64,000 nucleotides of DNA, taken from assembly GCA_016748015.1 (NCBI GenBank), contig JAAOMT010000328.1, positions 450,955-514,954 on the forward strand, given 5' to 3'. The position numbers were made by a program, and so were the translations under genes. Under the pieces are notes generated by a model. The model did not search any database and had not been told where the DNA came from. It worked only from the letters and a program-made list of their open reading frames with translations. Below, piece after piece: positions 19,956 to 64,000 of this stretch (positions are counted from its first letter, which is position 1; each line of letters opens with the position of its first letter). The DNA is from Geosiphon pyriformis uo1. Lineage: Eukaryota; Fungi; Glomeromycota.

Positions 19956-19963
19956 AAGGATAA

Positions 19964-20669: not shown

Positions 20670-20820
20670 ATAGGAAAAGAGAAATTAGTGATAAAAAAAA
20701 AATTAAGATAAAAGTTGTTATTTATTTATTTTATTTTCTTGATTTCTAATATGTATTTCTACAGCTAAAAAATTTATTGCTTATATTGTTATCAAAAGTA
20801 GAAAATCTGATTATTAATGA
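20670..20820 (-). repeat. Internal fragment of a family-A LTR
   Basis: Aligns with ~2302-2440. Confidence 0.75.
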
Positions 20821-24546: not shown

Positions 24547-24575
24547 AAATTACCAACCCACCTACCACAACAACA

Positions 24576-27702: not shown

Positions 27703-27715
27703 AAGGAGGGAATAA

Positions 27716-34952: not shown

Positions 34953-35084
34953 CATTGTTCTAATCAGTTTGAGTGGCTGGTCACATATAGAAAATGCATG
35001 ATTCACACCTAGTTTAGATTAATTACTTGATGTATTGTACTAGACAGTATTTGGACTTTGCTCATTAAATGTTAATAAAAAAAA

Positions 35085-35990: not shown

Positions 35991-36137
35991 TTTTTTTTTT
36001 AAATTTTTTTTTTCTTATTGTTTTACAAGTGAGATCCAAACATTACCTAGTACTATACATCAAAGAAATGACCTAAACTAGGCATGAATTATGCATTTTC
36101 CACATGTGACCAGCCATTCGAGCCAATCAGAACAACA

Positions 36138-39100
36138 CTACACAATTATGTAAACCAAAACTGAGTTACCTATGTCTAAAAAAAATAAACATAATTTGTG
36201 AAAGCCAAAATGAACACCAAAAGCATCAGCAATGCCAAGCAATTTGACCACCCCAGCCAACAACCCTGAAGCCAAACCAGCAACTGAAACAAAAACCAAA
36301 TCATCAAGAGGAATTAACTTATTTTTTTTTATGTAAATACAATGTTTAGCATGAACTGACCAGACATCACTTCTAAAAGCAAGACTAAGAGAGCACACAA
36401 ATTTGACAATTTCCAAACCAGCAACCTTGGAATTGTGAAAAATGGTAACTGTTTCACAAAACCAATCATTAAAAACAAAACCCTTATAAAGTGTTATGGA
36501 CAAAAAGAAGTCAAAAACACACAAAGACAATAGTTGTAGTATACCCAAAAACAAATAGGAATAACCAGAAACTGCTTTCCAGGAGTCTATATAAAATTTC
36601 AACAACTGACTCCGAATGGAATTATCAATCTTACAAGAGAACACATGATCTAAAGCTTCCATATTGCCACAATATAAGCATAACACACTAGGATATGACC
36701 TATTATAAAGGCACTTCTGAATAGCAACTGACAACTGGTAATGCAAAGCCTTCATGAAATAAGTGTGTGTGTTAGCCGAAGATCTGCTGGTAAAACCAGC
36801 AGTCATGTGCAAGTCAGGATGCCATACCAAAGATAAACAGTGCCAGTCAACTTCAAAATGCAAACTGCTCACCAAAAATCTGAAACCAGAACCAACCTCT
36901 CAGTGTGCACGACAAACCAAACAATAAACATCATGGACAAAATGTCTGGAATTGCCAAAAACCACATCACCATCAGCCATTATAAAGTGTTTACCCAAGC
37001 AAGAAAGAAGATACCAATTATAGAGAGAAGTGTTACTAACAATCGCATCAGTGCACTCATTTCCTGAAACATCAAAGTGGCTTTTAACTTTATGCCAGCT
37101 GACCTTCAAATTCTTACTGTGAATAACATTGGTAATATGATGACATTCAATCCAACACTAATTACAAAAGTTGGGATACACCAGACCCAATTCTGACTTA
37201 CAAGCATCCAGAGCAGATTGACTATCTGAAAACAAATTAACAGAGCACAGAAGGGAGACACACTTTAGAGCCAGTGCTATAGCCTGCAACTCTGCCAAAG
37301 TGGATGACATCAAGCCTAACACACCAACACCCAAACCCAAATCAATGTTCTCAAAAAAGGTGGCAGCACCAGCTTTACAGCCAACTGAGCCCAGATTACT
37401 AAGAGACTCATCTGTATATACTGACAAACTATTAGCACCAACCTGTAAGAGATGATTACAAACAGAAACAAAATTCTGAGATTCAAGAATGTTCAAAAAA
37501 CTGACACTATTCAAAACTGAAAGGCAAGTGGAAGATAGACTTCTACCATTTAGAAACACAACAGAAAGCTCAAACCATTTAGAAACAGAACCATGGAAGT
37601 CTAATCTCTTCCAATGCTTGAAAGTATACCAGTCAAAGACAGAACCATGATAATCATGAAGTTGATCCACAAAAGCAATACCATACTGTTGAAGAGAAAA
37701 GAAAAACCTACAAAACTGTGACTTGTCCAGAACAACAGACATAAGAACCCCACTACAAAACAGAAAGAAATTGGCCAAAGAGCCACCCAGGAACAAATTG
37801 CAATCAAGAAGAATGCATACTATGCCTGCCAGAAAATTATCAAAGGCACTGACATGAATATGCACAGGAGAATTTAAAAGATGAACAAGATGCCAGCACA
37901 AAACTTGCAAGTCATGAGACCTGTGAGAAAACAAATGACCCAAGATGCCACTAGAATTCACAAAACTAATGAGAGAGGCCACCTTGTTTTTAGACTGAAT
38001 CTGAATAAAAGACTTCAAACCATAAAAAGAAGAGTGATGGATTGTATTACTAGGAAAATTAAGAGGTAGGCCGGCTTTGAACTTCAAGCCCTTATGAATC
38101 AAAGCATCCCACTTGTTGCACATACTAATGAGAACAAAGCTGAACTGTGTTCTATAACTAACTATAGAATGAAAGACTGCTAATACCAAATATAAGAACT
38201 GCTTATCTAAGACAGCTTTTCTCAAGACCAGATTGGTAAAAAAACCAATGTCCAAATTTGTCTTCACCAAACTAGGCTTTGACAGACCTTCAGTTAATAG
38301 AAAAATACCCAAATATTAATGAGATTCACCCTTTTTGGCAATAAAGATTGGTGAGCCACTAATAGAAAGAGAAGAAATGCTGATTCTGCTATTGATGAGA
38401 ATGGCCACTGTTTTGTTGTTATTGATAGAAATATCATTTATCCGAAAAAGTTCACTTGCAACGTTAAGAATATGTTGAATAGCAGCCTGATTACAGCCAA
38501 CTCAAATTGTATCATTAATAAAAGCACCAGCAGCAAAAAAAGAAGAGAGCCCAGCCCTGGACTCAGCATGATTATTCCTTGAAATAAAATGAGAACTTAA
38601 CTTATAATTACACATGCTTTCCTGTCTCTTGACTTTACATAGCAAAGGATCATAAAATATATACCACAAAAGAGGAGAGAAGATTTCCCCTTGATCCAAA
38701 CTATCATGTACACAATAACCATCTGACAACCCAAAATCTGTTATTACTCTGTTGGTACAATCTCTATGAAGACCACTGAAAAACCAAATGAACCTGCCAT
38801 ATATCTTGATCCTGACCAAACTTTTCTTAAGATGTTCCCAGCCAACTGAATCATATGCTTTCTGCATATCTTGCAAAACCAGCCAGAGCTCTTGATTCTT
38901 TTCTAATGTATCCTCAACCACTGAACCAACTGCAAAAATAGGAGACTGAGTTGTCATGCCTTTCAAAACTGAAAAATTGTCTCCACAAAAAATGCTAAAA
39001 GTGCTGCATGCCAAAGAAATTCTATCAGAGAGTATCTTGGAAAGAATTTTACGAGCCGTTTCAATCAATGCAATAGGGTGGGTATTCATGAAAACACTCT

Positions 39101-40826
39101 TCCATTCATATGGTTTAGGAATCATCAAAACCCAAGCTTCTTTTCAAGATCTGAGCACCAATTCACAAGAAAGACACAAGTTCAAAAGTACCAAAAGCAT
39201 ATCCAAAATTGACTTGTTACAATGTTTCCAAAGCTTATTTGTGATATCTAAAAGACCAGCAGCTTTACCATCAGACAGAACAGAAACCACATTAAGCAGC
39301 TCACTAAACTCAACTGGATGTATTATACCAGAAAAGGCCTCATTAAAAACATAATCCAATGGCCAATATTAATGAAACCAAACATCAGAGACATCAGCAA
39401 CCACACCACATTTCCTGGTCCATTCTTTTATAATAATGTCCACCTTAGATTTAACTGAGCCAGGCTCTAAGATAAGTTTGTCATTAACAACTAGATGGTC
39501 CAGAACCACTTTGTGGAAAGGGAACTCCAGAACACTTTTAATAGTATGACCCTTATTTGTCTCGAAGCTTTCCATTCTCCTATCTATAACAGATTTAATG
39601 TTTGCTTCCTTAGCTGCCAGGGATTCAACAAGCTTGGATGCATGATATGACTTCCTAATGCCAAAGAAAGCAGAATAAACACGATTAGAGTCTGCATCAA
39701 AGTCTATGAAATCCTGAACAACTGAGACTTTGACACTGTCCAAAGAGTCTCAGTACTTTATAAGAGAGATAAAACTGACACCACTTTTCTCACGAGAGGC
39801 CTTGATAATTTTTGAAACCAAAAGTTCTAATCTGTAAAACTTTGAAAAAACTTTGGTAAACACACTGTCAAAATTCTTGAACCACTTCTTTTTAAATATT
39901 TCATTTGCCGAAAGCATCATTATCTTGTATAAAACATCTCACATGGTATTCAGGTCTGAGTGCTTAGCAGCAGTATCAAACTTATTAAAGAACATCCTAG
40001 CATTGGCTAACATGGCATTTTTAAAACTTTTCCACTTGTTGACATCAGCATCTTTAAAATCAAACTTCCACTGATCCTTATTTACTTGCTTGTAAAAAGA
40101 GTTCAACCACATATCTAAAAGTTCATCCAAACTCACAGACACAGAAACAGCCCAATAATCAGTATTAAAGAATTTCCCAACACCACTCACATTGTGATCC
40201 ACTACAGCATTAATCAAGTTTGAGGAGATGAACAAAAAGTCAATTGTTTTAGTTACACCACAAGAGTTGGTCCAAGTAGAAGTCTTAACAAAAGAACTTC
40301 TACCAAAGGAGTTAACCAAACCAAAATCAAGACATTTTTTGAAACTGACACATTTATGAAAACCATTTTCATTGAAATTGCCACCTAGAACAACAAAAAA
40401 AGATTCATTTGCAGCCTTGGCAATCATAGAGTTAATTTCACCAGCTTGAGAGAACTGAACTAACAAAGAAACATTAACATAAAACCCCAAAATTAAAACA
40501 AAAAGTTTGTTTTTGAAAAGTAGCTTAACAGAAAAGAGCTAACCAGAAACCTCAGAAATTTTACACACATGACAAGCCAGAGAAGTGTCCATAATAATGG
40601 TGATACCAGAACCTAAGTTATCAGAGTTTACACCAGAAGTAAAGACTCGAACACCATCAAACCTATTAGCAATCTATGAACAAACCTTACTCCATAACTT
40701 GGTTTTAGTAATAATTAAAATCAAATTGCCCATATCCTTGTGCCAATAAACAATATCCTCCTGTTTTGCAAAATTATTCATACCCCAAACATTGTAAGTA
40801 GCAATTTTCTAAACCAGACCAATCAT
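36138..40826 (-). pseudogene. L2 ORF2: AP endonuclease, RT, RNase H, Zn knuckle
   Basis: GGNFNE, TIDFLF; LQDMQKAYDSV, FINDT; VYTDES, AELQAI, FSDSQ, GNECTD; CLYCGNMEALDHVFSC. Confidence 0.92.
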
Positions 40827-42778
40827 TGAGATAGAGGGGGAGCTAACAAACCCAAACCAGAACACAAAAAGTCCAATCTCTCCAAAACCAAATTGACCAA
40901 AACTTCTAAAGCCAACATCTTTGATTTCAAACCACCTATCTTAGTGGTAAGCATCTTTGAACTGCTTAGACTCAGATCAGGGGCAGTTTTATTGACCAAC
41001 GGAAAAGAAGAAGAAGAGGGCACCACTATATTATCAACAGCCATATTCAAATCCAAAACTGAATCCAAGAGAGAAGCAACAAGAGAGGAGGGAGCACAAG
41101 GCAGCAATGATATCGACACCAAATTTACAAGGCTCAATTTTTTTAAAATATTTGAAACCTGATCCAACAAAAGCTCCAAGGAGTGCTCTAAAGAAGCCAG
41201 ACATTTGGCTAAACCAGAATTATCAAGAGGGTTGAAAGTTATTACCAAGGGTTTTGTACTTAAAAGCGAACTGGCACCAGAGAGAACTAATAAAAACATA
41301 TGAAAAAGAGAACCACCTGCAACTTAAGCCCAAGATTTTTCACCAAAAAATACTGGGCAAGCAACCAAAGTCTGCTTTTTCTTATAAATATTAGCCAAAC
41401 AGACCTGATCTTGGGAAGACATCACTCTCTTATGACAAACTCCAGAATTCCCACCAACTGAACACACATTAGAAATATGACCAAATTGTTTACACTTGGC
41501 ACAGCAAGCCAAAGAAAGACCAGTCCAGCACAAAGCCACACCTCTATAAACCAAAACAAAACCAATAGCAGCCAATTTGGATGCCTCATTATCAAAACAG
41601 ATCATTGCACATCTATTATGAGCATATGAACCAGAATTACGGCCAATAAAACAAGTTTTTCTATTATAAGAATTTACTAAATCCAACAAATCATAGACAG
41701 TAGTACCAACTGGAAGTGTGTACAACAAAGTCCGATAATAATCTCTGGCCATTTATGATTCCTTGTTATTTAATGCCAATACAACACAAACAGAATCCTT
41801 ATCCACGAAAACTGACCATTTGAAAGCAACTGAGCTAACTACATCTGATAACTCAAATTCCACTAATGCTTTTTGCCATAGCCTAATCAGTTGCATCCTA
41901 ATCAAAATTACCTGACCAAATTTAGAGAACACTGATTCAATTGCTGATCTGGGAAGATCCACTGGGATCTTCTTGACTATCACTTCCCAATCTGAGCAGC
42001 TGTTTGGTTTCTTAACATTAATATTTACCAGAATTTTTTTACTGATTACCATTTTCCTGGCCTTGATCAAACTTAACTCAGAAGTAAAAAAAGATCTAAT
42101 AATGTCTGGGAGTTTTGAAAGAGCAGATGTGTTCCCAAAACTGTCAACCCAATAAAAAAATTTTTTCACAGCAATCAACTTGTTACTGATAGTTTTGCTA
42201 AGCAAGACAGAAATTCTAATATCCAATGTGAATGACTTAACAAGATCAAAAATACATTTATCTGATGCATATAACCTGACAGATTGCAATTCTTTAAAGC
42301 CTGCAAATTTAGGAGAGAGAAGAATTGCCATATTATTATTATCACTTAAAATATCAAATGAAGAAGTCTTTGGAAGTTGATCTAACACATATGTGTGAGT
42401 GTGTGTTTTCCTGGGAGTTGTGTCATTCTCCATGTCATTAACCATAGAAGCATCTGAGTCAGCATAACTAGTTTCTTCAGTGACAGTATTTTTCATGTTC
42501 TCTAAGTCTGACAGGCCACTTACACTACTTGTTTTGCTTTCCATTTCACTGTCCTAAGATTTTGAAAACTTACTATTAGCATCACTAATATCGGCCAGGC
42601 CCAGCAGACCAGTAGACAAATCAATTACTTCAATGCTGACTTTGGGATTCTTAAGCTTCTTGTAAGATGCATTACAAGAGTACACATTATTAATCCTCTT
42701 TTTTTTTGCATCAGACTGGGTTCTCAAACCAGCAAAAATAGATTCAGAGCTACCAGCAACAGGACTTGCTAGTTTTAT
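40823..42778 (-). pseudogene. L2 ORF1 (RRM-like, CCHC knuckle, coiled coil)
   Basis: ORFs 42554, 41753, 41324, 40823 in one frame; CAKCKQFGHISNVC; start inferred. Confidence 0.82.
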
Positions 42779-45081: not shown

Positions 45082-45277
45082 TTTGGTGCTCCCTGTAAGG
45101 TATAATCTTACAGAGAACCAGCATCATCAACAATCATCCAAAAGTGGCAGAATCAGAAATCATAAGGACAAATCATTTAAGATTCACCAAATCCTTATTT
45201 TAACAGTACAATCAACAATTAGGATTGAACAATAATTATTTCCCAGCAGAATTAGCCTTTAACTTCTACATTAACAA

Positions 45278-46104
45278 TGTTACAGATGATTATTTGGGGT
45301 CTTAATTCAAATAACAAATCCATAACTTGGTGCTCAATATCTTGACAATGTTAGTGATATTGATACGTTGGTTGTATCTGAAAATTTTAGAGTTGAGTCT
45401 TTTGTATAATGGACAAAGATCCTTTAAGGTTGATGGTAGTTGTATTCTCAAGTTGTTTTCCCAATTTCTTTCTCAGCTTGGTGGCTGGATTTATTCTGGC
45501 ATTTGTGCCCTTCTGATAAGCTATCTAATAATATATATATAATTCTATCCTTATTTCTGGGTCTTTTACCAGGCTATCCATGATGTCAATAACTCAGTGC
45601 TTTAATCCTTAATCTGTTAGTATTCAACAAGAAAAATCAAAGAAAAAAAGAAAAATAAAAGAAAATAAAGAAATGAGCCAAGGCAATATGCAAGTTAGTA
45701 TCTCGTCAATAGCCATAATTAAGAGCTATTGTTCCAGCATAGTTAAGTATCAATTACTATTAACATAAAGTGTTGATAATGGAGAGTGAATTTGAATAAT
45801 AAATGATTTATTTATTTAATATTTGTGGATGGAAGATTTCTAACTAAAAGATTCTGCTTTTTCTACTTCTAATACTACTGCTATATATACATAATTGATG
45901 TTCTACGAGATCACTCACATTTCTAAGCAATGCTTACATTGCTGAGTGATATGCTTTAATTTTCTAATATTGCTCCACATTGCTGAGCAATATGCCATGT
46001 TTTCTGACATTGCTCTATATTGCTAAGCAATGTGCTCACATGCTAAATACTATTCTCTTATTGGTCTGCTATTTTTTATAACTGTTTTCTTTTTATGAGT
46101 AAAA
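45278..46104 (-). repeat. 3' LTR of B3
   Basis: Adjacent to degenerate PPT at 46105-46119. Confidence 0.9.
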
Positions 46105-46117
46105 TTATTTCCTTCTT

Positions 46118-46751
46118 TTAATATTGAGCTCCATTAAAATCTTTGTTTTGAATTAATTCTAATACTTTCTTTTCAAGTATTGTTTGTTCAACTCTGTTCT
46201 TTATGTCTTCTACATGTGTATTGTTTATTATTTTTTATTGGTTAATGGTTATGGTTTCTATGTCAGAGTGTAACAGTATTTCTGGATAGTTCTGAAATAT
46301 GTTGTGCAGTCAATAAATTGTTCTCACATGTAGTGTTAAGTTCGTCTTTTTCCCAATAAATTTTTCAATTTGCTGTATTATGTTTTGGTTAAATACTCTC
46401 TTAGATTTGTCAATATACAACTCTTGAATATTCAACTTTCGACCTAACTGGTAGTAACAGTATGATATTGAAAGTTGTTCTGTTCATTGCTTCCAATTCT
46501 CTTTTGTAAGTTCTTCTGTTGGTACCATAATAAGTATTTTTCCAAGTGTTCTTTACTTTTTCTATTATGTTATCTAACCAGTTTTTATTATTCTTTGGTA
46601 ACTACTGATATGGTGTATTCTTTGTCTTTCTTTTGGTGTTTTGATAGCAAATTGTTTGGTTGTTAATAATAATTTCCATGTCTAAAGGTTGTTGACTTAA
46701 GGCCTGGAATAATTGTTGAGCTATAGCGTGAATATAATCTGGTATTTCCAT
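46118..46751 (-). pseudogene. B3 ORF3
   Basis: MEIPDYIHAIAQQLFQ...YCYYQLGRKLNIQELY...; small frameshifts. Confidence 0.72.
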
Positions 46752-46769
46752 TTTTTTTGATTGCCTTTG

Positions 46770-48156
46770 TCACATATACTGTGTTTTTATATACTCTTTT
46801 ATTGTTTGATTTTACATGTTTGGTCTAATGATTATGATTGGTTTTAGATCTTGTGGAATCTCATCTGGTTGAACTAGTATTTGTTGTATTCCTAATTGTG
46901 GAATGTTATGATGCTATTTGGTAATATGGTTTCAGTTGATCATCATGTGCTGCTTTGGCTAAGGTTTTGTTGTCCCATCTTAATTTATAAGCTCCATTTC
47001 CAAGAATTTTTTCTATGTGAAATAGTCTGTTCCATTTGGGATCGAATTTTCCACTCTATTGTTTTTCTGCTTTGGTATAATGTAAAAATACTTTGTCTTC
47101 AATCTTGAATTCAACTGGTTTATCTGGTAATTGGTTATTGTATCATTTTTTTTGCTTTTCTTGAGACTTTTGAATGTTATCAGCTGCTTTTTGTTATCTG
47201 TTTCCTAGTGTTTCTATTAGGTCATATGTTCTTTTCAACAATGTTTCTTGAAAATTAGCTTCTGTTATTGGTTCTGTTGGATATCTGCTGACCTCTTTCT
47301 CAACTGGGAATGTTGCTGTCCTACTATATACCAATTCAAATGGTGTTGCTTGTATAGTATCTTGTCTCATTGTTCGATAAGCAAATAATACTAATGGTAT
47401 AAACAAATCCCATTCATTTTGGTTTTCTTGACTGATTTTGGCAATTGCTTTACACAGTATTCTATTAAACCTTTTGACTAGTCTATTTGTTTGTGGATAA
47501 TATGGTGACAATAATGGTCTTTTTATCCCAAATCTCTGACTTAATTCTGTTAATGTTCTATTCACAAAATGAGTTCTTTGATCTGATAGTAGTTTTTTTG
47601 AACATCTATGTCGACATATTAAATCTTGATGAACAAATTTGGCAATGGATTCTGCATCTGCTCTTTGAATGGCTTTTGCTTCTGGCCATTTTGTGAGATA
47701 GTTTATGGCTACTGCAATATATCTGTTGCCTTTACTGGTGATTGTTAATGGTCTAACTAAGTCAATTCCAATATGATCAAATAGTTGTCTTACTTTGATT
47801 GGTCTTAATGGTTTACTTGGTCTTGTTTCTCTTTTTCTTCACAAGCATCACAATTTTGAACATATTGAATGATGTCTGGGTACATTAATGGCCAATAATA
47901 TCTTTTTCTGGTTCTTTTTATGGTTGCTTCTTTATAAAAATGTTCTGCTGTTGGATCTGAGTGCATGTTGAATAATATTGTCTCTTTCTCTGGTTCTGTG
48001 ATTACTCAGATTGGTTGATCTGGATTTCTTCTGTTCTTCTGATAGAGTATATTTTGATTGTTGTTTTATGTTGTTTTGTTTCTTTTGAGATAATTTTTCC
48101 TTGAACAATTGGGTATTTATATAATGTTAGAGTTGTTGGTATTTTTGTGTGTTCAT
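46770..48156 (-). pseudogene. B3 stand-alone integrase
   Basis: ATG 30 nt after RNase H stop; HHCC and DDE-core motifs. Confidence 0.9.
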
Positions 48157-48186
48157 CTTTTGTTATATTTTTGGGTTGAAATGTTT

Positions 48187-51100
48187 TTAGATTTGTCTCA
48201 TTTGCGACAGTTTATCAGCATTTTTATTGTCTTTTCCTTTTTTATAATGTACTGTATAATTAAATGGTAAAAGTTCTATTTTTCATTTGGCATGGCGATT
48301 GTTTACAAATTTTTGTTTCTGGATTGAAGTCAATCCTTTGTAATCAGTGTACACTTCAAACTTTTGACTCAAGTATTCCTTCCATTTGATAACAGCCCAA
48401 TAGATAGTTAAGTGTTCTAGTGCTGGAGTTTCATAGTTTTTCTCAGCTGGACTTAAGCTTCTACTGGCATAAGCTACTGGATGTTTTCTTCTATCTGAGC
48501 TTTTCTGTAATAGTACTGCTCCCAATGCTTGACCTGATGCATTGGTGGTGATTATAAATGGTTTGCTATAATCTGAATACATCAATACTGGAGCTTGGAT
48601 AAGCTTTCTTTTTAATGTGTCAAATGCTTCTTGTTGAGCTTCAGTCCATTCATACTTCACATTCTTGGTCTGTAGATGGTGAAGTGGCTGAGCCAGTTTT
48701 GAAAAGTTTTTGATGAAACAGCAATAATAGCCTGCAAAACCTAAAAATGCTCTTAGTTTTGTCAAGTTGGTTGGTATTGGAAAGTTCTTAACTACTTCAA
48801 TCTTGTTTGGATCCGTTTTAATTTCATCTTTACTTATTACATGTCCCAAAAACTTGAGTTCAGTTTTTCCAAAGAAACATTTGGTTGCATTTAGTTTCAA
48901 TTCAGCTCTTCTTAATCTTTCAAACACTTGTTGGAAATGATGCAGATGATTATCAAATGTTTTTGAGAACACATTGGTGTCATCCAAGTATATGACTACT
49001 GATTTCCATAGTAATCCAGTATAAACAATTTTTATGAGCCATTGGAATGTTGCTGAAACATTTATCAAGCCAAATGGCATGACTTCAAACTCAAAATTTT
49101 CTTTTCTTGTGGTGAATGCTGTTTTTTTTTGTCAGCTGGATCCATGGCTACTTGCCAGTAACCACTATCTAAATCTAATATTAAGAACTATTTATTTCCT
49201 CCAAAAGCATCGAATAGTTTTTGGATCTTTAGAGTTGGATAGCTATCACTTTTTGTTACTTCATTTAGTTTTCGGTAGTCTACACAAAAACAGATTTTTC
49301 TATTTTTTTTATAGATTAGTACTACTGGTAACGACCATGGACTTATTGATGGCTGAATTAGCTCATTGTCAAGCATCTGGTTGATTTCTTGACAAATGAT
49401 CTCCTGGCTAGCTAGTGGTACTCTGTATGCTTGTTGTTTAATTGGCATTGCATTTCCAGTCTTGATTTGATGCTAGATGATATTGGTTTGGCCAAATTCA
49501 TTTTCACTGGCAAAGACGTCATTGAAATTTCTGAATAACATCTTTAGTTGCATCTGTTAGAGTGGATCTAGATTCTCCATGTTCATCTGTTCCAATTGTT
49601 TTGGTTGGAGCAGATAACATTCACTTCTTCCATAAATGGTTTGTAATGTAATATTCACATATCCGCAAAGCTGTAAAAAATCTGGAATGTGGTTTGGTGG
49701 TTGATCCTCAACTTCAGTGGTTAAATATCCAATAATGGTTTCCTTTGGTATTTTGATGACCTTTTCAGTTGTATTATGGATGGGGATTTTGATGTTTTTA
49801 GGGCTTTTGGCTGATATGTAGAGATTGGTAAGTCCAATCTCTCCTGATTCACAAATAGTGGCTTCTGTTTTAAACAATTGAGCTTGATCTCTTACTTCCT
49901 TTTTTATGACTAACATATACTGGCCATATGGCAGAATGGAAATTGTTTGATGGGTTGAGATAATTTCTTCTTTGTCAACAATTTTTTTTTCTGCTATATT
50001 AACTAGTATATCTATTCTATCCGTTAATTCAAATTTCTGTATTCTTTTTGCTGTTATATCTAATTCTTCCCTTTTTTCCACTGAAACTAATTGAGCTATT
50101 TTCATCAGAGGTAAGAATATTGCCTGTGCTATCTTTTCATTTGGTTCTATAATATAAGTTTTTTCTGAGTCATTTTGTAGCATGGCAATGATATTTTTTA
50201 TATATCTCGCATTAATTATTCCTCCTCTGATGTTGATTTCTTTTTTTGCTAAACTACTCCTAGATGCTAATTGGACCATGATTGTTGCTGGAATTTCCAA
50301 AGCTATTTTGAGATCAATACATGTGCACAAATTTGGTTCCAATTTAATGGCTTCTTTTTCTGGATATCTCAGATCAAACCCTATGTCAGTATCATGTGCA
50401 CATTCTGGCATAATACTTTCATTATTATCACTATACCATTTGAGTTCCTGTTTCTTTGAGAGATCAGGAAGTACAATAAATGTTTTGGGGTTTGAATTGG
50501 AGTTTGACTTGTCATAATTTTTGTTGCTATTTGGAGTGGAGCTGAAACCATTGTTTTTGTCATCATCATTGTCGGAGTTTGAATTGGGATTAAAAGTTGA
50601 TTCTGATTCTAATGCACAGCTGTTGATTGGTTCTTCTTCCTTTGGGATTGTGTAGATCATGTGTGATGGTAGATTGTAAATGAGGTCACACTTATTATAG
50701 TATTGAAAGTTACATAGAATCAAACAGTGATCACATAGTCGAGTGTTTAGCTATGCTAAATGTTGCTCTTGTTTTTCTCTGGTGGGTGCCAAAGTTTAAT
50801 AGTGTTCATGAAATTCTTTTGGTTCCAGGAGATTTATGGCTGGTTTTTCATCTCAGTCAAGTTCTATAGGTTCTGGTGGGTTGTTTTTAATTTTTCTGAT
50901 TTCTTTGGATATTGCTCCTTCTATTTTGGCAGTTGTCATTCTCCAGATCTTGTCGTCATTGTATGAACAACTGTCCAATTGTTGTACTGTTCTTCTCCAA
51001 GCTGCTTCTATTAGTGTCTCTTTCCTTATCCAGTCACTAATTAGAATCGTGTATTGGCACAATTCGTTGCACATTTCTTCTTGCTCTAGAATGTCATTTC

Positions 51101-54100
51101 ACATTTTTTCATCTAAGAGAGTTTCTCTACAAATGAGACAAGATTGGTTGTCCTATTTTCCTTGCCTCTTTGGTCATCCAAAGCATTTTAAAATACATGG
51201 ATGGCAGTAGAATTTAGTGGCTGTGTGTGTTTTTTATTATCACTACAGCATGCATCTATTGACGACAATTTCTTGTCACAATCAACATATACTAGTTTAG
51301 GTCGGTGATAAGAAGAAAGTTGTGGTGTGGCATAGATGTATAGAATATGTGTGGTAGGGGCTTAGGTGGTTTTTTCTTCTTTTTTTCTCCCTTTTCCTTT
51401 ATTCTCTTTTTATTCTCAACTTGAGGTTTCTTCTTGTTCGTTGTTGATCCAAGTCAGATTGTCAGTTTTCCAGGTGGGTTTCTCTTTTTGTTTTCCTTTT
51501 CTGTTGTTGTCCCATAAGAGTATTGGCAGCAGTTTTTTGTATTTGGTGTTGGTCCAGGAAACTTGTTAGGCTTCCCAGGTAGGTTTCTTCTTCTCTTCCT
51601 CAAATTTTATAAGTGGGATTATCGAGTTGGTGGTCTTGAAATGGCCACACATAGCTGGTATGCGTGTGTGTTAACTGTTTTGACTGAGTTGTAATTTTTG
51701 AGTAGTCCAATTGAGTATGACATTAGTTTTGGATAACCAATTGTTGCCTACCAATGCTTAATATTGGGTTGCTTCCATCACTAGAACTTTGATGGGAGTA
51801 ATAATGCCATTGACTTTAAAAGGAAAGTCATTAATTTCACCAATGGGAGTTTTGGTTGCTCCATTGGCGGTTATGATTCTGGCACTGGCAGCGTGATCAA
51901 CTTGGCGACCTAATTGGTCCATGAGTTGTTTTGTAATGATGCTGCCAGCTGATCCACTATTTAGGATTAGTTTTATGAAGTGGCCATCAACTTTGACATT
52001 AGTGTACATGGCAGTAATGGGTTTTTCTTCCAAAGTGGCTCCATTAAATAACAGCATGGTCAACGGTTCTTCGAGTTCAAATAAGAAGATGGCATTTAGT
52101 GATTTATTCTTAGTAATAGTAGCTGGTAGAATGTTGCTAGTAAGTGTTGAGTGTTGGTTGGTTTCCAAGTTATTGGGTTGAGCGTCTTTTGGGGTGACCA
52201 GGAGACTTAAATAGTTCTGAAAATTCGGGTTTTGGGTGTACCCAGTGCCTGAATTCCATTGTCAAGAGCCTAATAATTGTGCCATAAAACTGGGGATCAG
52301 TTGATAGACAATTATTGACAATCTCCAACTTTGTTGGGTCAATTTCGGCATTTAAGTTCTGTTTTGAGGTAAGTTCTGTGGTGGTGTTTGGATTTGTTGG
52401 GGCTGATATATTACCTGGGGCTGTGGCTGATAAATAGATTGTGGTTGCAGCTGATAAATTGCTAGTGTTGTCAGTTGATAAATTAGCATTTGATATACTA
52501 AGAGTTGATAAAGTGGCTGCTATATTATAGATAAGTAATTCTGATGATATGGTTCTGAGTTTGGTAGGTTATTCAGAATATGAAACTGGCAATTGGAGTT
52601 TTGATATTGATTTTCTGATCATTGGTTACTTAAACAATGGTGGCAATTAATTTGTAGGTGTCCTTATTTACCACAATAGTGGCAAATATGCGTTTCCTGT
52701 TGCCACTGTTGATTGGTCAATGATAATAGACACGATTGATTCTGGAAATGATTCACATTTCTGGAATTATTGCGTCATTGTGGTGGTTGATAAATTGCAC
52801 AATTGTTAGCTAAGTATTTTTCTAATTTCTGATTGATGAAATCACTAAATTGTTTCAATTTGGAATCCAATTCAGATAATCCATTCATTACTAGATTAAT
52901 GGCTTGGGCATGATTAGCTTCGAGTTCAATGGCTTCAAAATCTTTGGCATTTGTGACGGCTGCTTACAGATTGATGGAATGCATTGAACGTATGCATTAC
53001 AGGATGCTACTGTATAATCTGTGAATAAACTGATTTAGGATCTGGGCTACTGTGAAATAATTGGGGTCAATGACTTGGATCTGGCACAGATTCCTGTGGA
53101 AGCATTCTAAGTAAGTAGTAACTGCTTTATTTTCTCCTTGTTTAATGATAGTGAAGATGTTTGCTAGTCTGTTAATGCTGTTATTGTTGCTAAAGTATCT
53201 TAAGAATTCTATTTTGAATGCATTAAAATCTTGGGGTTTGTTGACCAGGCTTTGGTACCATGAATCAGCCATATTTTGGAGAAAATATGGGATGGTTTGC
53301 ATGGCTCTGATGTTATTCCAGCCATTAGCTGCAATGGTTTTCTCCATATTATTTAGCCATATTTGGGCGTCATCCTCTTTGCTAGTAAATTTCTTGAGTT
53401 TTGCTATTAGAGTGTAGACTATTGGATACAAGTTTGGTTGTTAAAGTTGTTGTTGTTGTGGCTGTAAAAGCGGCTGCTGTGGTAGTTGTGATGGTTGAAA
53501 TAGTTGTTGTTGCCGTTCATCAATTGGTGGAACTGGGGGTGGATTGATCATGATTACTGGAGGTAAGTGTTATTGATTATTAATGTTGGGGTTTCAATTG
53601 TTTTAATTGTGCTGTGTTTGAAAATTCAGAGTTTTAATTTCCGGGTTTTTTGGGATTGGGTTCTGGTAAGTAAATTCTTGATCTTCAGATTCTTTTTCTT
53701 CTTTCTGTTTCTCTTCCGATTCTGTTAATTCCCAGAGATTTGTGGTTCCAAATCTGGCTGTAGTAGTGGTGATTAGAATCTTGATGGCATTGGCAATCAC
53801 AATTTAAATCTTTCAAAGTAATTACCATATGGTCTTAATAACTCTGCTTTTCGTTATTTACTTTGAAATGGGAAGTGTTCAAAGATTAATATTGCATTTG
53901 ATGTAGACACATCTGTTGATGAGATGTTGATAGCATTTCTAAGTGTATAATGATATAATGGATTAATAGGTGATTCAACTCGGGTTTTTTTCCAATTGGG
54001 TAGTTGGATTTGTTTTGGTGTTACTGCTGGGGTTTGTAATCTTCCTTTGCCTTTATCTGCATAGGTGATGGGGAATTATTGTTGTGTATACCTTTTAATA

Positions 54101-54369
54101 GTTTGATTGATTTCTCTAATAATTGGTGCAAAACTGTAGTTTTTTGGTAAGCTGGTATGTTGAAATAATTCTGTATAGAAGTTTTCTCTTGCTGCTTCAA
54201 TGTTAACTGTTCTTCCTAAGCACTCTGTGATTTTATTGTTAACATAGAAGTTGAAGACTGATTCTGCTGGGAAATGATTATTGTTCAATTCTAATTGTTA
54301 ACTGTATTGTTGAAATAAGAATTTGGCAAATTCTAAATGGTTTGTCTCTATGATTTCTGATTCTGCCAC
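48187..54369 (-). pseudogene. gag-pol: B3 gag-PR-Cys-rich-dUTPase-RT-RNase H polyprotein
   Basis: KLKKFTSKEDDAQIWL capsid; LILNSGSAGS; SRSSLA; YLDDTNV. Confidence 0.92.
50010..50400 (-). pseudogene. dut: dUTPase domain of B3
   Basis: AHDTDIGFDL, ASRSSLA, GGIINARY, KIAQAIF. Confidence 0.87.
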
Positions 54370-54430
54370 TTTGGATAATTGTTAATGGTGCTGGTTCTCT
54401 GTAGGATTAGACCTCATAGGGAGCACCAAA

Positions 54431-55279
54431 TGTTACAGATAATTATTTGGGGTCTCAATTCAAATAACAAATCCATAACTTGGTGTTCAATATCTTGACA
54501 ATATTGGTGATACTAATACGTTGGTTGTATCTGAAGATTTTAGAGTTGAGTCTTTTGTATAATAGACAGAGATCTTTTAAGGTTGATGGTAGTTGTATTC
54601 TCAAGTTGTTTTCCCAATTTTTTTCTCAGCTTGGTGGCTGAATTTATTTTGGTATTTGTGCCCTTCTGGTAAGCTATCTGATAATATATATATAATTCTA
54701 CCCTTATTTCTGGGTTTTTTATCAGGCTATCCATAACGTCAATAACTCAGCACTTTAATCCTTAATCTATTAGTATTCAACAAGAAAAATCAAAGAAAGA
54801 AAGAAAAATAAAAGAAAATAAAGAAATGAGCCAAGGCAATATGCAAGTTAGTATCTTATCAATAGCCATAATTAAGAGCTATTGTTCCAGCATAGTTAAG
54901 TATTAATTACTATTAACATGAAGTGTTGATAGTGGAAAGTGGATTTGAATAGTAGATGATTTATTTATTTAATATTTGTGAATAAAAGATTTTTAACTAA
55001 AAGATTCTGCTTTTTCTACTTCTAATGCTACTGCTATATATACATAATTGATGTTCTATGAGATTGCTCACATTTCTGAGTGATGTGCTATGATTTTTTG
55101 AGCAATGCTCACATTGCTGAACGATGTGCTCTAATTTTCTAATATTGCTCTATATTGCTGAGCAATATGCTGTGTTTTCTGACATTGCTCCACATTGCTG
55201 AGCAATGTGTTTACATGCTAAATACTATTCTCTTATTGGTCTGCTATTTTCTATATCTGTTTTCTTTTTATGAGTAACA
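54431..55279 (-). repeat. 5' LTR of B3
   Basis: Adjacent to PBS 54411-54428. Confidence 0.9.
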
Positions 55280-55283
55280 ACAA

Positions 55284-57260: not shown

Positions 57261-58147
57261 TGTTACAGGTAATTATTTGGGGTTTCAAAGCAAATAACAA
57301 ACCCATAACTTGGTGCTCAATTGATTGATAATGCTGGTAATACTAATATGTTAGTTGTATCTGAAGGTTTTGGAGTTGAGTCCTTTGTATAATGAACAGA
57401 GATTCTTTGTTAATGTTATTTGCAGTTAGTTTGTGTAAGTTGTTTCCCAATTTCTTTTTCAGCTTGGTGGCTGGATTTATTCTGGCAGTTATGTCTTTCT
57501 GGTAAGCTATCCGATAATATATATAATGCTACCCTTATCTCTAGATTTTTTACCAGGCTATCCATAATGTCAATAACTCAGTGCTTTTAATCAATTAGTA
57601 TACAACAAAATCAAATAAAAGAAATAAAAGAAAATAAAGAAATGTAGGAAATAAGCCAAGACAATTTGCAAGTTAGTATTCTGTCAATAGCTGTGATTAA
57701 AAGCTATTGTTCCAGTATGGCTAAGTATTAATTACTATTAACATGAAGTGTTGATACTGGAGAGTAAATTGAGATAGTAAATAATTATTTATTGATATTT
57801 GTGATGTAGAAAGTTTCTAACTGATAGATTCTGCTTTTTTTCTACTTTTAACACTACCATTATATATACATAATTGATGTTCTATAAGATCACTCACATT
57901 CCTGAGTGATGTGCTATAATTTCTTGAGCAATGCTCACATTGCTAAGCAATGTGTCATATTTTTTTGACATTGCTCCACATTGCTGAGTGATGTGCCTTG
58001 ATTTCTGACATTGTTCTACATTGCTGAACAATGTGCTATAATTTCTGACATTGCTTCATATTGCTGAGCAATATGCTCATGTACTAACTACTACTTTGTC
58101 TATTGGTCTACTATTTTCTATAACTGTTTTCTTTTTTATAAGTAATA
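57261..58147 (-). repeat. 3' LTR of B4
   Basis: Family-B LTR next to PPT AAAAAGGAGGAGATAA. Confidence 0.9.
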
Positions 58148-58161
58148 TTATCTCCTCCTTT

Positions 58162-58797
58162 TTAATATTGAGCTTCATCAAAATCTTTGTTTTGAATTAA
58201 TTCTAATACTTCTTTTTCAAGTATTGTTTGTTCAACTCTGTTTCTTACGTCTTCTACTTATGTATTGTTCATTCTTCCCCATTGGTTAATGGTTATGGTT
58301 TCCATGTTAGAGTGTAACAGTATTTCCAGATAGTTCCAAAATATGTTGTGTAGTTAGTACATTGTTCTAACATACAGTGTTGAATTTGTTTTCTTTCTGA
58401 TAAATTCTTCAATTTGTTGTATTATATCTTGGTTGAATATTCTCTTGGATTTGTTAATATACAACTCTTGAATATTCAACTTTTGACCTAGCCAGTAATA
58501 GCAATATGACATTGGAAGTTGTTCTGTCCATTGCTTCTAATTTTTTTTTGTAAGCTCTTCTGTTGGTGCCATAATAAGTATTTTCCCAAAAGTGTTCTTC
58601 ACTTTTTTCATTAAGTTATCTGTCCAGTTTTTATTGTTCTTTGTTAATCACTGATATGGTGTATTTTTTGTCTTTCTTTGGGTGTTTCAATAGCAAATTA
58701 TTTGGTTGTTAATAACAATTTCCATATCTAACTGTTGTTCACTTAAGGCTTGGAACAATTGTTGAGCTATAGTGTAGATATGATCTGGTATTTCCAT
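58162..58797 (-). pseudogene. B4 ORF3 (~212 codons)
   Basis: ATG GAA ATA CCA start to DFDEAQY*; nonsense transitions inside. Confidence 0.72.
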
Positions 58798-58815
58798 TTT
58801 TTTTGGTTGCTTCCA

Positions 58816-60235
58816 TTACATATACTGTGTTTTTATATACTTTTTTGCTTGTTCAATTTGACGTGTTTGGTTCAATAACTATGATTAGTTCCAAATCTTG
58901 TGAAATCTCATCTGGTTGAACTAGTATTCTTTGTACTTCCAGTTGTGGAATGTTATTGGTAGACGATGATGTTATCTGGTGATATGGTTTCAGTCGATCA
59001 CCATGTGTTGCTTTTGCTAAGATTTTGTTGTCCTATCTTAGTTTATAAGCTCCATTTCCAAGAATTTCTTCTATGTAAAATGGTCCGTCCCATTTGGGGT
59101 CAAATTTTCTACTCCATTGTTTTTCCACTTTGGTGCAATGTAAAAGTACTTTGTTTCCAATCTTAAATTCAACTGGTTTATCTATTAATTAGTTATTATG
59201 TCATTCTTTTTGCTTTTCTTGTGACTTCTGGATATTGTCAGTTGCCCTTCGTCATTTGTTTTCTAAAGTTTCCATCAAGTCATATGTTCTTCTTAGCAAC
59301 GTTTCTTGAAAATTCTTTTCTGTTATTGGCTCTGTTAAATATATCTTGACTTCTATTTCAACTGGTAATATTGCTGTTCTACCGTATACTAATTTAAATA
59401 GTGTTGCTTGTGTAGTGTTCTGCTTTATTGTTCGATAAGCAAATAGTACTGATGATATAAACAAATTTCATTCATCCTGGTTTTCTTAACTAATCTTGGC
59501 AACTGCTTTACACAATGTTCTATTGAATCTTTCAACTAGTTCATTGGTTTGTGGGTGGTATGGTAATAACAGTAGTCTTTTAACTCAAAATCTTTGACTT
59601 AATTCTGCCAGTGTTTTGTTCACAAAATGAGTTCCTTGATCTGATAGTAGTTCTTTTAGACATCCGTGTTGACAAATCAAATCTTGATGGATGAATTCAG
59701 CAACGGATTCTGCATCTGCTTTTTGAATGACTTTTGCTTCTGGTCATTTAGTGAGATAATCCATAGCTACTACAATATATCTGTTGCCTCTGCTGGTGAT
59801 TGTTAATGGTTCAACTAAGTCAATTCCAATGCAATTGAATGATTGTCCCACTTTGATTGGTCTTAATGGTTCACTGGGTCTTGTTCCTCCTATTCTCTGA
59901 CAAGCATCACAATTTTGAACATATTGAATGATGTCTGGATATATTGATGGCCAATAGTATCTTTTTCTAGTTCTTTCCATGATTGCTTCTTTATGAAAAT
60001 ATCCTACTGTTGGGTCTGAATGCATGTTAAATAATATTGTCTCTTTCTCTGGTTCTGTGATTACTTTAATTGGTTAATCTGAATTTCTTCTGTTCTTTTG
60101 GTAAAGTATATTTTGATGATTAATAAAATATTTTGATTGTTGTTTTATGTTTTTTTGTTTTTTTTGAGATAATTTCTCCTTGAACAATTGGGTATTTATA
60201 TAATGTTGAAGTTGTTGGTATTTTTGTATATTCAT
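58816..60235 (-). pseudogene. B4 stand-alone integrase
   Basis: MHSDP..CDAC, IGIDLV, DQG, DGPFY. Confidence 0.9.
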
Positions 60236-60266
60236 TTTTTTTTTTTATATATTTTTGGGTTGAAAT

Positions 60267-60299
<33 letters not shown>

Positions 60300-60304
<5 letters not shown>

Positions 60305-63300
60305 TTTGTCTCATTCATGACAATCCGTCAGCATTTCTATTGTTTTTTCTCTTTTTATAATGTACTGTATAATTAAATGGTGAAAGTTTTATTTTCCATC
60401 TGGCATAGCAATTGTCTGCAAATTCTTGTTTCTGAATTGAAGTCAATCCTTTGTAATTGGTATAAACATCAAACTTTTGGCTCAAGTATTCTCTCCATTT
60501 TATAACTGCCCAATAGATAGCTAAGTGTTCTAATGCTGGAGTTTCATAGTTCTTCTCAGCTGGACTTAAGTTTCTACTGGCATAAGCTACTGGATGTTCT
60601 CTTCCATCTGGTTCTTTCTGTGACAGCATTGCTCCCAATGCTTGGCCAAATGCATTAGTAGTAATAATGAATGGTTTGCTGTAATCTGAATACATCAATA
60701 CTGGAGCTTGGATAAGTTTTTTTCTTAATATGTCAAAAGCTTTTTGCTGGGTTTCTGTCTATTCATACTTCACATTCTTTGTTTAGAGTTGGTGTAATAG
60801 TTGAGCTATTTTGGAAAAATTGTTGATAAAGCAGCAGTAGTATTTGGCAAATTCCAAAAATGCTCTCAATTATTTGGTACTGGAAAGTTCTTGACAATCT
60901 TTATCTTGTCTGGATCTGTTTTGATTCCATTTTTACTCACTACATGTCCCAAAAACTTGAGTTCAGTTTTTCCAAAGAAACATTTGGTTGCATTTAGTCT
61001 CAATCCGGCTCTTTTTAATCTTTCAAACACTTGTTGAAAATGATGTAGATGATCATCAAATGTTTTTGAGAACACATTAGTGTTATCCAAGTATACAACT
61101 ACTGATTTCCATAGTAGTCTAGTATAGACAATTTTCATGAACCATTGGAATGTTGCTGGGATGTTCATCAAGCCAAATAGCATGACTTCAAATTCAAAAT
61201 TCCCTTTTCTTGTGGTAAATGCTGTTTTCTCTTTGTCGGCTGGATCCATGGCTACTTGCCAGTAACCACTGTCTAGATTTAATGTTGAGAACCATTTATT
61301 TCCTCCAAAAGTGTCAAATAGTTCTTGGATCTTTAGAGTTGGATAGCTATTATCTTTAGTCACTCCATTCAGTTTTCAATAATCCACACAAAAGTGGATT
61401 TTTTCATTTTTTTTCTGGACTAGTACCACTGGTGATGACCATGGATTCATTGATGGCTGAATTAGCCTGTTGTCAAGCATCTGGTTGATTCCTTGACAAA
61501 TGATCTCATAGCTAGCTGGTGGTACTCTGTATGCTCTTTGCTTAATTGGCATTGCATCTCCAGTCTTGATCTGATGCTGGATGATGTTGGTGCAGTCAAA
61601 TTCATTTTCACTTGCAAAGATGTCATTGAAATTGTTGAACAACATTTTGGGCTGCATCTGTTGAAATGGATCTAAGTTGCTCATGTTCATTTGTTCCAAT
61701 TGTTCCAGTTGGAGCAAATAACATTCATTTCATCTGTAGATGGTTTGTGATGTAATGTCCACATATCCACAAAGCTGTGGAAAATCTGGAATATGGTTTG
61801 GCAGTTGGTTCTCAACTTTGGTGGTTAAATATCCAATGATAGTTCTTTTTGGTATTTCAATAATGCATCTCATTGGGTTGTAGATGGGAATTTTGATATT
61901 TTTGGGGCTATTGGCTGATATGTAGAGATTGGTGAGTCCAATTTCTCCTGATTTGCAAATAGTAGCTTCTGCTTCAAACAACTGAGCTTGATTCTTTACT
62001 TCTCTCTTTATGGCTAACATATACTGGTCATATGGTAGAATGAAGATTGATTGATGAGTTGAAATAATTTCTCTTTTGTCAACAATTTCTTTCTTTGCCA
62101 TATTGACTAATATATCTATTCTACCTGTTAATTCAAATCCTTGTATCCCTCTAGCTGTAATCCCTAATTCTTTCCTGTTTTTCACTGATACTAACTGAGC
62201 TATTTTCACCAGAGGTAGGAATATTGCCTGTGCTATTTTTTTGTTTGGGTCTATGGTATATGCTTTTTCTGAATTATTTTGTAGCATAGCAATAATATTC
62301 CCTACATATCCTGCATTAATTATTTCTCCTTTGATGTTTATTCCTTTTTTTGCTAAACTACTTCTGGATGCTAGTTGAATCATTGTTGTTGCTAAGATTT
62401 TTAATGCTACTTTGAAATCAATGCAGATGTGCGAATGTGGTTCCAATTTAATGGGATTTTTCCCTGGATATCTCAGATCAAATCCTGCATCAGTATTGTG
62501 CACATACTCAGGCATGATATCTTCATTATTATCGCTGAATCATTTTAGTTCCTGCTCCTTGGTAAGGTCAGGAAGTGTGATAAATATTTTGGGATATGAA
62601 TCAGATTTTGAATTGTCATAATTTGTGTTGCTAATTGGAGTGGAGCTGGAACCATTGTTTTTATCATCATTGTTGTTGGAGTTTGAATCAGGATTGAAAA
62701 CTGATTTCAATTCTGATGTACAGCTGCTTATTGGTTTGTTTTTTTTTGGGATTGTGTAGATCATGCATGGTGGTGGATTGTAAATGAGGTCACACTCATT
62801 ACAATATTAAAAGTCACAAGGAATTAGGCAGTGTTGACATAGTCAAATATTCAATTGTTCTAAGTGTTGCTCTTGCTCTTCTCTTGTGGGTGCTAACTTC
62901 TGGTAGTGTTCATGAAATTGTTCTGGATCTAGAAGATTTATGACTAGTTCTGGATCCCAGTCAAGTTCTATGAATTCTGATGAGTTGTTTTTGATTTTTC
63001 TGATTTCTTCAGACAATGCTCCTTCTATCTTGGCCATTGTCATTCTCCAGATCTTGTTGTCATTGTATGGACAACTGTCTAATCGCTGCACAGCTCTTCT
63101 CCAAGCGGCTTCTATTGGAGTTTCTTTTTTGACCCAGTCACTGATAAGAATTGTGTATTAACACAAAGTGTTGTACGTTCTTCCTTAACCAGGAATATCA
63201 TTCCACATTCCTTCGTCAAGTAAGGTTTCACCACAAGCTAGGCAAGATTCATTGTTCCATTTTTCTTGTCTTTTCGGTTGTCTAAAGCATTCTATGACAC

Positions 63301-64000
63301 ATGTGCAGTAGTAGAATTTGGTTGCTGTTTGGTATTCCTTATCATTGTCATAGCATACATCTATTGACAACAATTTCTTGTCACAATTGACGTATATTAA
63401 TTTGGGTTGGCAATAGTTTGACTGTTGTGATGGAGCATAAGTGTCTGGAATATAAGTATTGTTGGCTTGGATAGTGTCTTTTTCTTTTCCTTTCTCTTTG
63501 CCTCTTTCTTTTTCTTCTTCCTACCCCCAATTTACTGTCAGTTTGTTGTCGTCATTGTCAGTCCATGTCAGATTGTCAGTTTCTCAGATGAGTTCTTCTC
63601 TTTGTTTTTTTTTTACTGGCTCATCCCATAATAGTATTGGCAGCAGTTTATTGTGGTTATTGTCAGCCCACAACACTTGGTATGCCTCCCAGGTAGGTTT
63701 TGGTTTTTTTTCTTTCAGTTCAATCAATAGTGTAAAGAGATGATTTGATTTAAAGTGACCACAGATGGCTGGTACTCTTGTATGTTGGTTATGCTAACTG
63801 AGTTGAACCTCTTGCATGTTCCAGTCCATAACAGCACTGGCTTTGAACAACTAGTCATTGCCAACAAGGGCCTAGTACTGGGTGGCTTCCATTACCAGTA
63901 CCTTAATTAGTATAATGATGCCATTGACTTCTATGGGTAGATTGTCAATCTCTCCAATGGGTGTTTTGGTCACTTCATCGGCTGTGATAATTCTGATGCT
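60300..64000 (-). pseudogene. pol: B4 PR(part)-Cys-rich-dUTPase-RT-RNase H
   Basis: ORF track 60315-63373 carries RT, RH and dUTPase motifs. Confidence 0.92.
62118..62500 (-). pseudogene. dut: dUTPase domain of B4
   Basis: DAGFDL, ASRSSLA, IINAGYVGN, KIAQAIF, RGIQGF..TG. Confidence 0.9.

Follow-up and report, generated by a model that had tools for sequence, protein, structure and literature searches.

Canonical Ty3/Gypsy retrotransposons, including the fungal chromoviruses and Ylt1-like elements, have long terminal repeats (LTRs) of the TG...CA type, a primer-binding site (PBS), a polypurine tract (PPT) and a gag with a CCHC knuckle, together with the protease-reverse transcriptase-RNase H-integrase (PR-RT-RH-IN) order, a Ty3-type RT/RNase H and a GPY/F-type integrase, according to the accessible parts of their descriptions (PMC3248453, PMC2864245). 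These features are shared by element B3, which lies on the minus strand of a 64,000-nucleotide (nt) stretch of the Geosiphon pyriformis uo1 genome (contig JAAOMT010000328.1, positions 450,955 to 514,954; here called the window). However, B3 differs from the canonical elements in that its integrase open reading frame (ORF) lies outside Pol and has its own ATG, in a conserved third ORF (ORF3) that is not env, in the apparent lack of a chromodomain and in a 4-bp target duplication. LTR retroelements normally bring integrase into the particle as part of Pol, whereas the diverse and successful lineage described here makes it separately. It is nearly certain that this three-ORF layout, i.e. a separate integrase after the RNase H stop followed by ORF3, is real, and the split is a trait of the lineage, not a product of decay.

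Element B3 and the separate integrase cistron

B3 is a dead LTR retrotransposon of the Ty3/Gypsy type. Pfam matches and tblastn give its minus-strand order as gag capsid, zinc knuckle, PR, Cys-rich domain, dUTPase, RT, RNase H, stop, integrase and ORF3, and bear out the original prediction that this order is complete in B1 and B3 and partial in B4 and C. The matches in the RT/RH/IN region are to PF17917, PF17919, PF17921 and PF00665. The features of B3 are as follows.

45278-55279, minus strand: whole element, LTR-bounded, Ty3/Gypsy-type, dead copy
45274-45277 and 55280-55283: 4-bp target duplication ACAA flanking B3, within gag of sister element B2
54431-55279, minus strand: 5' LTR (TG...CA), 92.6% identical to the 3' LTR
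54411-54428, minus strand: PBS, with TGG two bases past the LTR; B1, B2 and A2 have a PBS of the same type
48187-54369, minus strand: cistron 1, gag-PR-Cys-dUTPase-RT-RH, one ancestral frame, decayed in B3, ending in TAA 48189-48187
52997-53440, minus strand: gag capsid (PF03732)
about 52643-52684, minus strand: CCHC zinc knuckle
51653-52030, minus strand: aspartic protease, DSG in B1 and C, NSG by decay in B3
50685-51310, minus strand: Cys-rich domain of ~220 amino acids (aa), several CxxC pairs around a helical core
50016-50447, minus strand: dUTPase (PF00692, E 4.8e-17), between the Cys domain and RT
48190-49406, minus strand: RT and RNase H
48157-48189, minus strand: RH-IN junction, TAA and then a 30-nt A/C-rich spacer with a second in-frame TAA at 48165-48163
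46812-48156, minus strand: cistron 2, integrase, own ATG (48154-48156) with A at -3; H2C2, DDE core, GPY/F-type, SH3-like end
46118-46751, minus strand: cistron 3, ORF3, ~210 codons, starting 60 nt past the stop of cistron 2, with its end on the PPT
46105-46119, minus strand: PPT
45278-46104, minus strand: 3' LTR, beginning TT where the 5' LTR begins TG

The RNase H stop and the integrase ATG of B3 recur in B1, B4, C and A2; families B, C and A2 all stop after RNase H and restart at an integrase ATG, each in a different frame. The related elements of the window are listed below.

8025-18797, minus strand: B1, full-length sister with the B3 layout and target duplication ACAT, sitting in the A2 integrase
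57261-64000, minus strand: B4, sister truncated by the window end and so lacking its 5' part; RNase H stop and ATG as in B3; spacer A-runs expanded
20800-27715, plus strand: C, second family, PR-Cys-dUTPase-RT-RH / IN / ORF3 and PPT, without gag or 5' LTR
24544-24546 (TAA) and 24576 (integrase ATG), plus strand: C junction, 29-nt G-free spacer and frame change; ORF3 runs to 27702
2882-20667, plus strand: A2, third family, with LTRs at 2882-3611 and 19966-20667 and interrupted by the inserted B1
7136-7144 (three stops ending RT-RH) and 7200 (integrase ATG, in another frame), plus strand: A2 junction
19242-19955, plus strand: third ORF of A2, putative ORF3 counterpart

The RT-RH of family C is ~51% identical to that of B. 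A2 had been predicted to share the 3' half of the layout; RT-RH, integrase and a third ORF are indeed present, but this ORF is only a putative homologue of ORF3, 16 of 500 and 68 of 500 shuffles reaching an equal score. The LTRs had been thought unrelated between families, and this holds only in part, the B and C LTRs having in common a 54-nt patch that is 76% identical. In the RH-IN spacer of B4 (~60300-60350, minus strand) the A-runs are expanded by 29 and 5 extra bases from both TAA codons onward.

Genome-wide evidence on the junction comes from run X1, possibly the source sample itself; 1,294 of its contigs were aligned over the B junction, counting only copies 80% alike. Variants at a frequency of at least 3% occur at 8 positions, all of them transitions, and none lies in either TAA or in the ATG. 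The RNase H stop is retained across the B copies and the X1 contigs, and no collapse to an ordinary single Pol is seen.

The same layout was found in relatives, as the original prediction had proposed to check. Among the 50 matches to the B3 integrase core collected from proteins of 376-2000 aa, the best 48 are stand-alone integrases of 383-438 aa, one of them from Rhizophagus irregularis, and the two fused proteins rank last. All 48 start with Met, which falls in one column for 36 of the 38 that were aligned. A chromodomain (PF00385) is found in none of the 48, which end shortly past the SH3-like region, and none is seen in the B3 integrase. A profile of the stand-alone integrases was used to retrieve metagenome loci, the best 80 of 558 confirmed. 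In 0 of these 80 does the integrase ORF contain RT or RNase H, a count that covers the nearest kin only, the loci having been picked by likeness to stand-alone integrases. An upstream ORF is present in 49 (42 with RT/RH matches, 7 with a pol extension or other ORF); 24 lack sufficient upstream DNA or an ORF, and 7 lack a Met near the expected start. The gap between upstream ORF and integrase in the 49 loci runs from -20 to +727 nt, and the 43 dereplicated junctions comprise 16 overlaps, 21 spacers of 0-100 nt and 6 of more than 100 nt, with all three frames represented (11/17/15). L013 and L008 are examples of overlap, and the spacers of L006, B and C measure 24-30 nt. A at -3 accompanies 46 of 64 integrase starts; for internal Met codons the count is 117 of 360 (p 7e-9). 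Because of this conservation and sequence context the integrase ATG appears to be a real start. Terminal direct repeats were seen in five of six long loci checked (L013, L033, L066, L067, L075). In viral contigs the single window integrase as query gave no match and the integrase profile gave 18 distant loci.

The candidates group together most clearly when RT-RH and integrase are combined: 37 of 37 lie on one side of a branch that separates them from 29 others (SH-aLRT 99.6), in a quick tree without bootstrap from which five rows were left out (four lacking integrase, plus L010). B and C are sisters in this tree, with L006 adjoining. With RT-RH alone, FastTree places all candidates together except L066 and L073 (support 0.86), and IQ-TREE, from which 11 outgroup rows had been dropped as near-duplicates or long chimeric models, groups 34 of 40 (SH-aLRT 90), three changes being needed and none of them forced by strong branches. 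The outgroups in these trees, gene models from animals, plants and algae, include many multi-copy chimeras and contain no fused fungal element or named clade. Families B, C and A2, the X1 contigs, the relatives and the RT-RH+IN tree agree in upholding the prediction of a distinct lineage as opposed to decay.

Translation of the integrase

The reading favoured here, with slightly better than even confidence, joins the separate-integrase layout to termination-reinitiation on the genomic RNA. Termination-reinitiation would be the best single account because the UAAUG, AUGA and AUGnnUGA overlaps match proven stop/restart signals. Overlaps of these types follow a long ORF in CHV1, HvV190S, caliciviruses, influenza B and SART1, as they do in the relatives here, and fungal precedents exist (PMC2699510, PMC10275272, in their accessible parts); geometries of exactly -1, -4 or -8 (UAAUG, AUGA and AUGnnUGA-type), which the accessible text of PMC2699510 lists for proven cases, occur in 11 of the 49 loci. 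Ribosomes would terminate at the end of gag-pol and start again a short way on along that RNA to make integrase, while gag-PR-Cys-dUTPase-RT-RH would be a single polyprotein cut by the protease. Restart would yield a small amount of free integrase, which would have to get to the particle or the cDNA through RNA or Gag binding and not inside Pol. ORF3 would act as an accessory protein in soluble form, and the dUTPase would keep the cDNA free of uracil.

Several observations weigh against this account. The window junctions have no overlap (spacers of 30, 29 and 61 nt) and fold only weakly, and neither a reinitiation element nor the RNA motif of a sub-lineage described below was found in them. 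The start expected at or near the stop overlaps it in 16 of 43 relatives, lies 29-61 nt away in the window, and is more than 100 nt away in 6 of 43, in which spacers reach 727 nt and an internal promoter fits better. TURBS-type restart is not expected to have a strong Kozak context, as far as the accessible part of PMC10275272 goes. On RT-RH alone the group does not come out as a single branch, with 34 of 40 members together, and different sub-lineages may use different routes. As to precedent, the proven reinitiation systems are RNA viruses or a non-LTR element, whereas here the product would be the integrase of an LTR element and the window spacers are 29-61 nt.

Integrase, and ORF3 with it, might instead have a shorter mRNA of its own, whether transcribed from a promoter inside the element or spliced from a donor close to the 5' LTR; this possibility is to be taken seriously though it is not a probable one. 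The strong, scanning-type context of the ATG fits such an mRNA, as do the six long AT-rich spacers, some with TATA-like words, and the AAG immediately 5' of the B ATG; but 16 of 43 junctions keep the stop/start overlap although the pol C-termini are very different, AG immediately precedes the ATG in just 1 of 64 starts, and the B3 and C spacers hold no YAG acceptor. Local splicing of RNase H onto integrase was ruled out on this same absence of YAG. Internal ribosome entry or RNA cleavage directed by a structured RNA 5' of the integrase ATG seems rather unlikely. It would account for a covarying motif of ~40 nt that is present in 21 of 80 loci and mostly ends a few bases 5' of the ATG; however, neither the window nor any of the 16 overlap junctions has the motif, which could equally be a restart or packaging signal. 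In this motif 98.4% of cells are paired, 6 of 10 pairs show two-sided change and 0 of 500 shuffles are as well paired, figures that refer to a structure drawn by eye from the same sequences, which favours the motif over slid controls. No Rfam match was found at the motif position in the 15 of 21 loci scanned. Examples, with 18 more loci besides, are:

L016:4464-4501: RNA motif
L011:295-331: RNA motif
L025:5193-5230: RNA motif

The sub-lineage with the motif often has a pol with a long extension after RNase H.

Readthrough of the stop, or a frameshift around it, to give an ordinary RT-RH-IN fusion is very improbable because all three frames occur among relatives and two TAA codons stand in frame in B; in addition, conservation extends to the first Met and its context. 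In its favour are the B integrase being in frame with RNase H, and an in-frame stop between PR and RT in another sub-lineage, which suggests programmed readthrough there (L030:3292, L037:2884, L049:872, L058:904, L067:3360, L069:1587, L072:931). An ORF3 match was not found in L036, L069 and L072, which are loci with this PR-RT stop and room after the integrase, or their close kin. The idea that an ordinary single Pol was split by mutational decay can hardly be credited. The copies are heavily mutated, the B1/B3/B4 alignment having 1,208 transition columns against 203 others. Against decay, one frame of the aligned B copies, from just past the PBS to the PPT (54416-46120), has only 8 stops common to all, as compared with 111 and 123 in the other frames. 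Five of the eight are one in the PBS, the RNase H stop at 48189, the TAA at 48165, one between integrase and ORF3 and one at the end of ORF3; the other three lie inside cistron 1, as decay would have it, but gene models of other copies have residues at these sites, so that the three stops are read as having decayed in parallel. Also against decay, the RNase H stop is invariant in the X1 contigs, and the same split occurs in relatives with long unbroken ORFs.

ORF3, cistron 1 and decay in the window

ORF3 lies between integrase and PPT in B1, B3, B4 and C, with 31-40% identity between families, and the C ORF3 matches that of the relative L006 (30.6%, E 1.6e-12). A profile of 20 ORF3s, C and L006 among them, matches 554 clusters at E 0.001, and proteins of Rhizophagus and Gigaspora are among them. 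The link of the window ORF3 to the bulk of this all-helical family is weak, and it is to be seen as a putative distant member: a hidden Markov model of the family matches under E 1 in the window only the C ORF3 (15 bits) and misses the B copies, and hhalign of window ORF3 against family gives E 0.0012 with a probability of 19%. ORF3 is present in 24 of 34 loci with at least 600 nt after the integrase, a count that is partly circular. The model of the ORF3 from relative P0257 is all-helical (148 aa, mean pLDDT 97.2); against PDB and BFVD Foldseek gave no match to it at E 0.001, which is not proof of a new fold, and its best VIA Z is 4.5 (root-mean-square deviation 3.4, 70 aligned). The ESM Atlas gave no usable ORF3 match, and no Pfam family is common to more than 1 of 148 ORF3 members. 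A PDB sequence match to a designed cytochrome trimer (E 0.0012) was taken as chance. The original prediction called the lineage virus-like, and ORF3 does not bear this out: a hydrophobic stretch of 19 residues (Kyte-Doolittle window of at least 1.6; the C ORF3 reaches 1.17) is present in only 1 of 150 proteins of the ORF3 family, so that ORF3 is not env-like and may rather be a soluble accessory factor. Two relatives have additional ORFs after the integrase, a 284-aa coiled-coil-like ORF before ORF3 at L013:7404-8258, and ORFs of 198 and 612 aa without Pfam match at L062:2942-5367.

Cistron 1 likely starts at a GTG common to B1, B2 and B3. This GTG (54367-54369, minus strand) opens the long gag frame in these copies, with a strong start context of A at -3 and G at +4; the first in-frame gag ATG lies far downstream. 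Gag may thus use a near-cognate start. A TGA at 52621, after the zinc knuckle, is also common to B1, B2 and B3, and only two gene models show Gln there and one a gap; it is probably CpG decay, and may alternatively be a readthrough stop.

The dUTPase and the Cys domain, which had been proposed as part of the lineage signature, are only subfamily markers, because they are found in 2 of 20 related loci spanning PR-RT and in 0 of 98 retrieved related loci, respectively; the signature is the separate integrase plus ORF3. The dUTPase is also found in proteins P0067, P0072 and P0081. P0072, which is 36-55% identical to Gypsy-type gene models of animals, plants and algae, ends directly after RNase H, its C-terminus being that of L014, in which the integrase begins 75 nt further on. 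Of 86 long homologues of the dUTPase region, 82 are Geosiphon pyriformis gene models and one more is the window's own. Copies B1, B3, B4 and C, many Geosiphon models and P0067 carry the 220-aa Cys domain, and several relatives have a shorter Cys cluster at its position. The 220-aa domain is predicted to bind zinc. Pfam gave it no significant match, with no family common to more than 2 of 19 Cys stretches, and Foldseek hits to its model (mean pLDDT 66.9) are weak and LIM/GATA-type (E 0.14 or worse), which is no proof of a new fold; the best VIA Z is 4.3 (root-mean-square deviation 4.6, 70 aligned), and ESM Atlas scores are 0.82 or less.

The window is a nest of decayed retroelements (~32% G+C) in which every copy is dead; the nesting and the target duplications are evidence of past mobility. 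LTR elements make up 41.2% of the G. pyriformis genome according to the accessible part of PMC11952901. Frameshifts private to B3 lie near 53753, 51225, 49128, 48059, 47841, 46910 and 46546, and its LTR pair differs by 59 transitions and 2 transversions; very few transversions separate the LTR pairs generally. Across B1/B3/B4 CpG is nearly always mutated, 126 sites being variable and 6 invariant, and in their internal regions C>T and G>A changes reach 41-61% in every other context. Classical CpA-specific repeat-induced point mutation was ruled out on this pattern, in which the hot spot is CpG. No tRNA genes were found within the window. Family-A LTR copies are clustered and nested in both orientations at 366-3778. 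An inverted, ~68% identical pair at 28596-35090 (plus strand) and 36000-42196 (minus strand), with RT and RNase H and no LTRs seen, is likely of the long interspersed nuclear element (LINE) type, and a related ORF1-like stretch seems to occupy the 5' part of A2 near 4400-5200. Exact duplications astride 20-N gaps (13063-13873/13894-14704, 811 bp; 33485-33787/33808-34110, 303 bp) are likely scaffolding artefacts.

Comparison with described elements

The elements appear to form one lineage of Ty3/Gypsy derivation that is not part of the canonical Metaviridae, because the integrase lies outside the Pol polyprotein. B1 and B3 have TG...CA LTRs and 4-bp target duplications, with PBS and PPT inside the LTRs; gag capsid and CCHC knuckle, the PR-RT-RH-IN order, and homologous RT/RH and integrase are likewise present. 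The C-terminal chromodomain of chromovirus integrases is absent, and ORF3 is not a membrane glycoprotein as in errantivirus-like elements. The lineage is rather probably undescribed so far. No separate-integrase Gypsy clade was found in the literature searched, Repbase, GyDB, most subscription journals and supplements lying outside that search, nor does one appear in the accessible parts of PMC5408684, PMC11952901, PMC5751038, PMC6431247, PMC3248453, PMC2699510, PMC10275272, PMC2774666, PMC10508981, PMC6839031, 10.1101/2021.03.30.436303, 10.64898/2026.05.21.726589 and PMC2864245.

Two questions arise from the lineage: by what means fungal ribosomes come to translate a cistron that lies behind a 6-kb ORF, and by what route an integrase made outside Pol gets to the cDNA. 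The lineage also contributes a 554-cluster protein family, confidently modelled and lacking a fold match, and a covarying RNA motif that is new. Its stand-alone integrases in Rhizophagus, which are intact and 430 aa long in R. irregularis, carry the annotation of plain DDE integrases, and they may be mistaken for DNA transposons in counts. A more far-reaching reading, and a speculative one, is that of an old, undescribed tricistronic Ty3/Gypsy clade of arbuscular-mycorrhizal-type fungi that uses restart or internal entry, has an RNA signal of a new class in one branch, and encodes an ORF3 of new fold acting in trans. By a tentative analogy with the transactivator of cauliflower mosaic virus, ORF3 might in such a clade promote restart or bring free integrase into the particle, and it is conceivable, if doubtful, that the free-standing integrase cistron would be a ready precursor for Ginger1-like DNA transposons.

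The position of the dUTPase, listed in the original prediction as part of the candidate new layout, has precedents. Gypsy elements bearing a dUTPase are published from Postia (PosPlaTy3-5), Phanerochaete and Tuber (PMC2864245), rotifers (Juno/Vesta/TelKA, PMC5408684) and planarians (Burro, PMC6431247), and in PosPlaTy3-5, the rotifer families and Burro it lies between PR and RT, as here. The rotifer families also have a variable ORF3 (PMC5408684). However, the accessible parts of these descriptions mention no separate integrase and nothing matching the 220-aa Cys domain or the ORF3 family of the present lineage.

Ginger1 DNA transposons, in the accessible part of PMC6839031, have a stand-alone Gypsy-like integrase with H2C2 and GPY and TG...CA ends, as here. 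In a comparison by features only they differ in having the integrase alone between inverted repeats and no RT, whereas in the present elements it lies within an LTR element with gag and RT, and the terminal repeats are direct. DIRS elements also have an essential enzyme outside the main polyprotein, but in the descriptions so far as accessible that enzyme is a tyrosine recombinase. Foamy virus is alike in that an enzyme is made outside the main polyprotein; there it is the whole of Pol, and not integrase alone, that is expressed separately. The Ty3/Gypsy enzymes and ends and the PR-RT dUTPase are already known, and what is probably new here is the separate-integrase layout and the uncharacterised ORF3 family.

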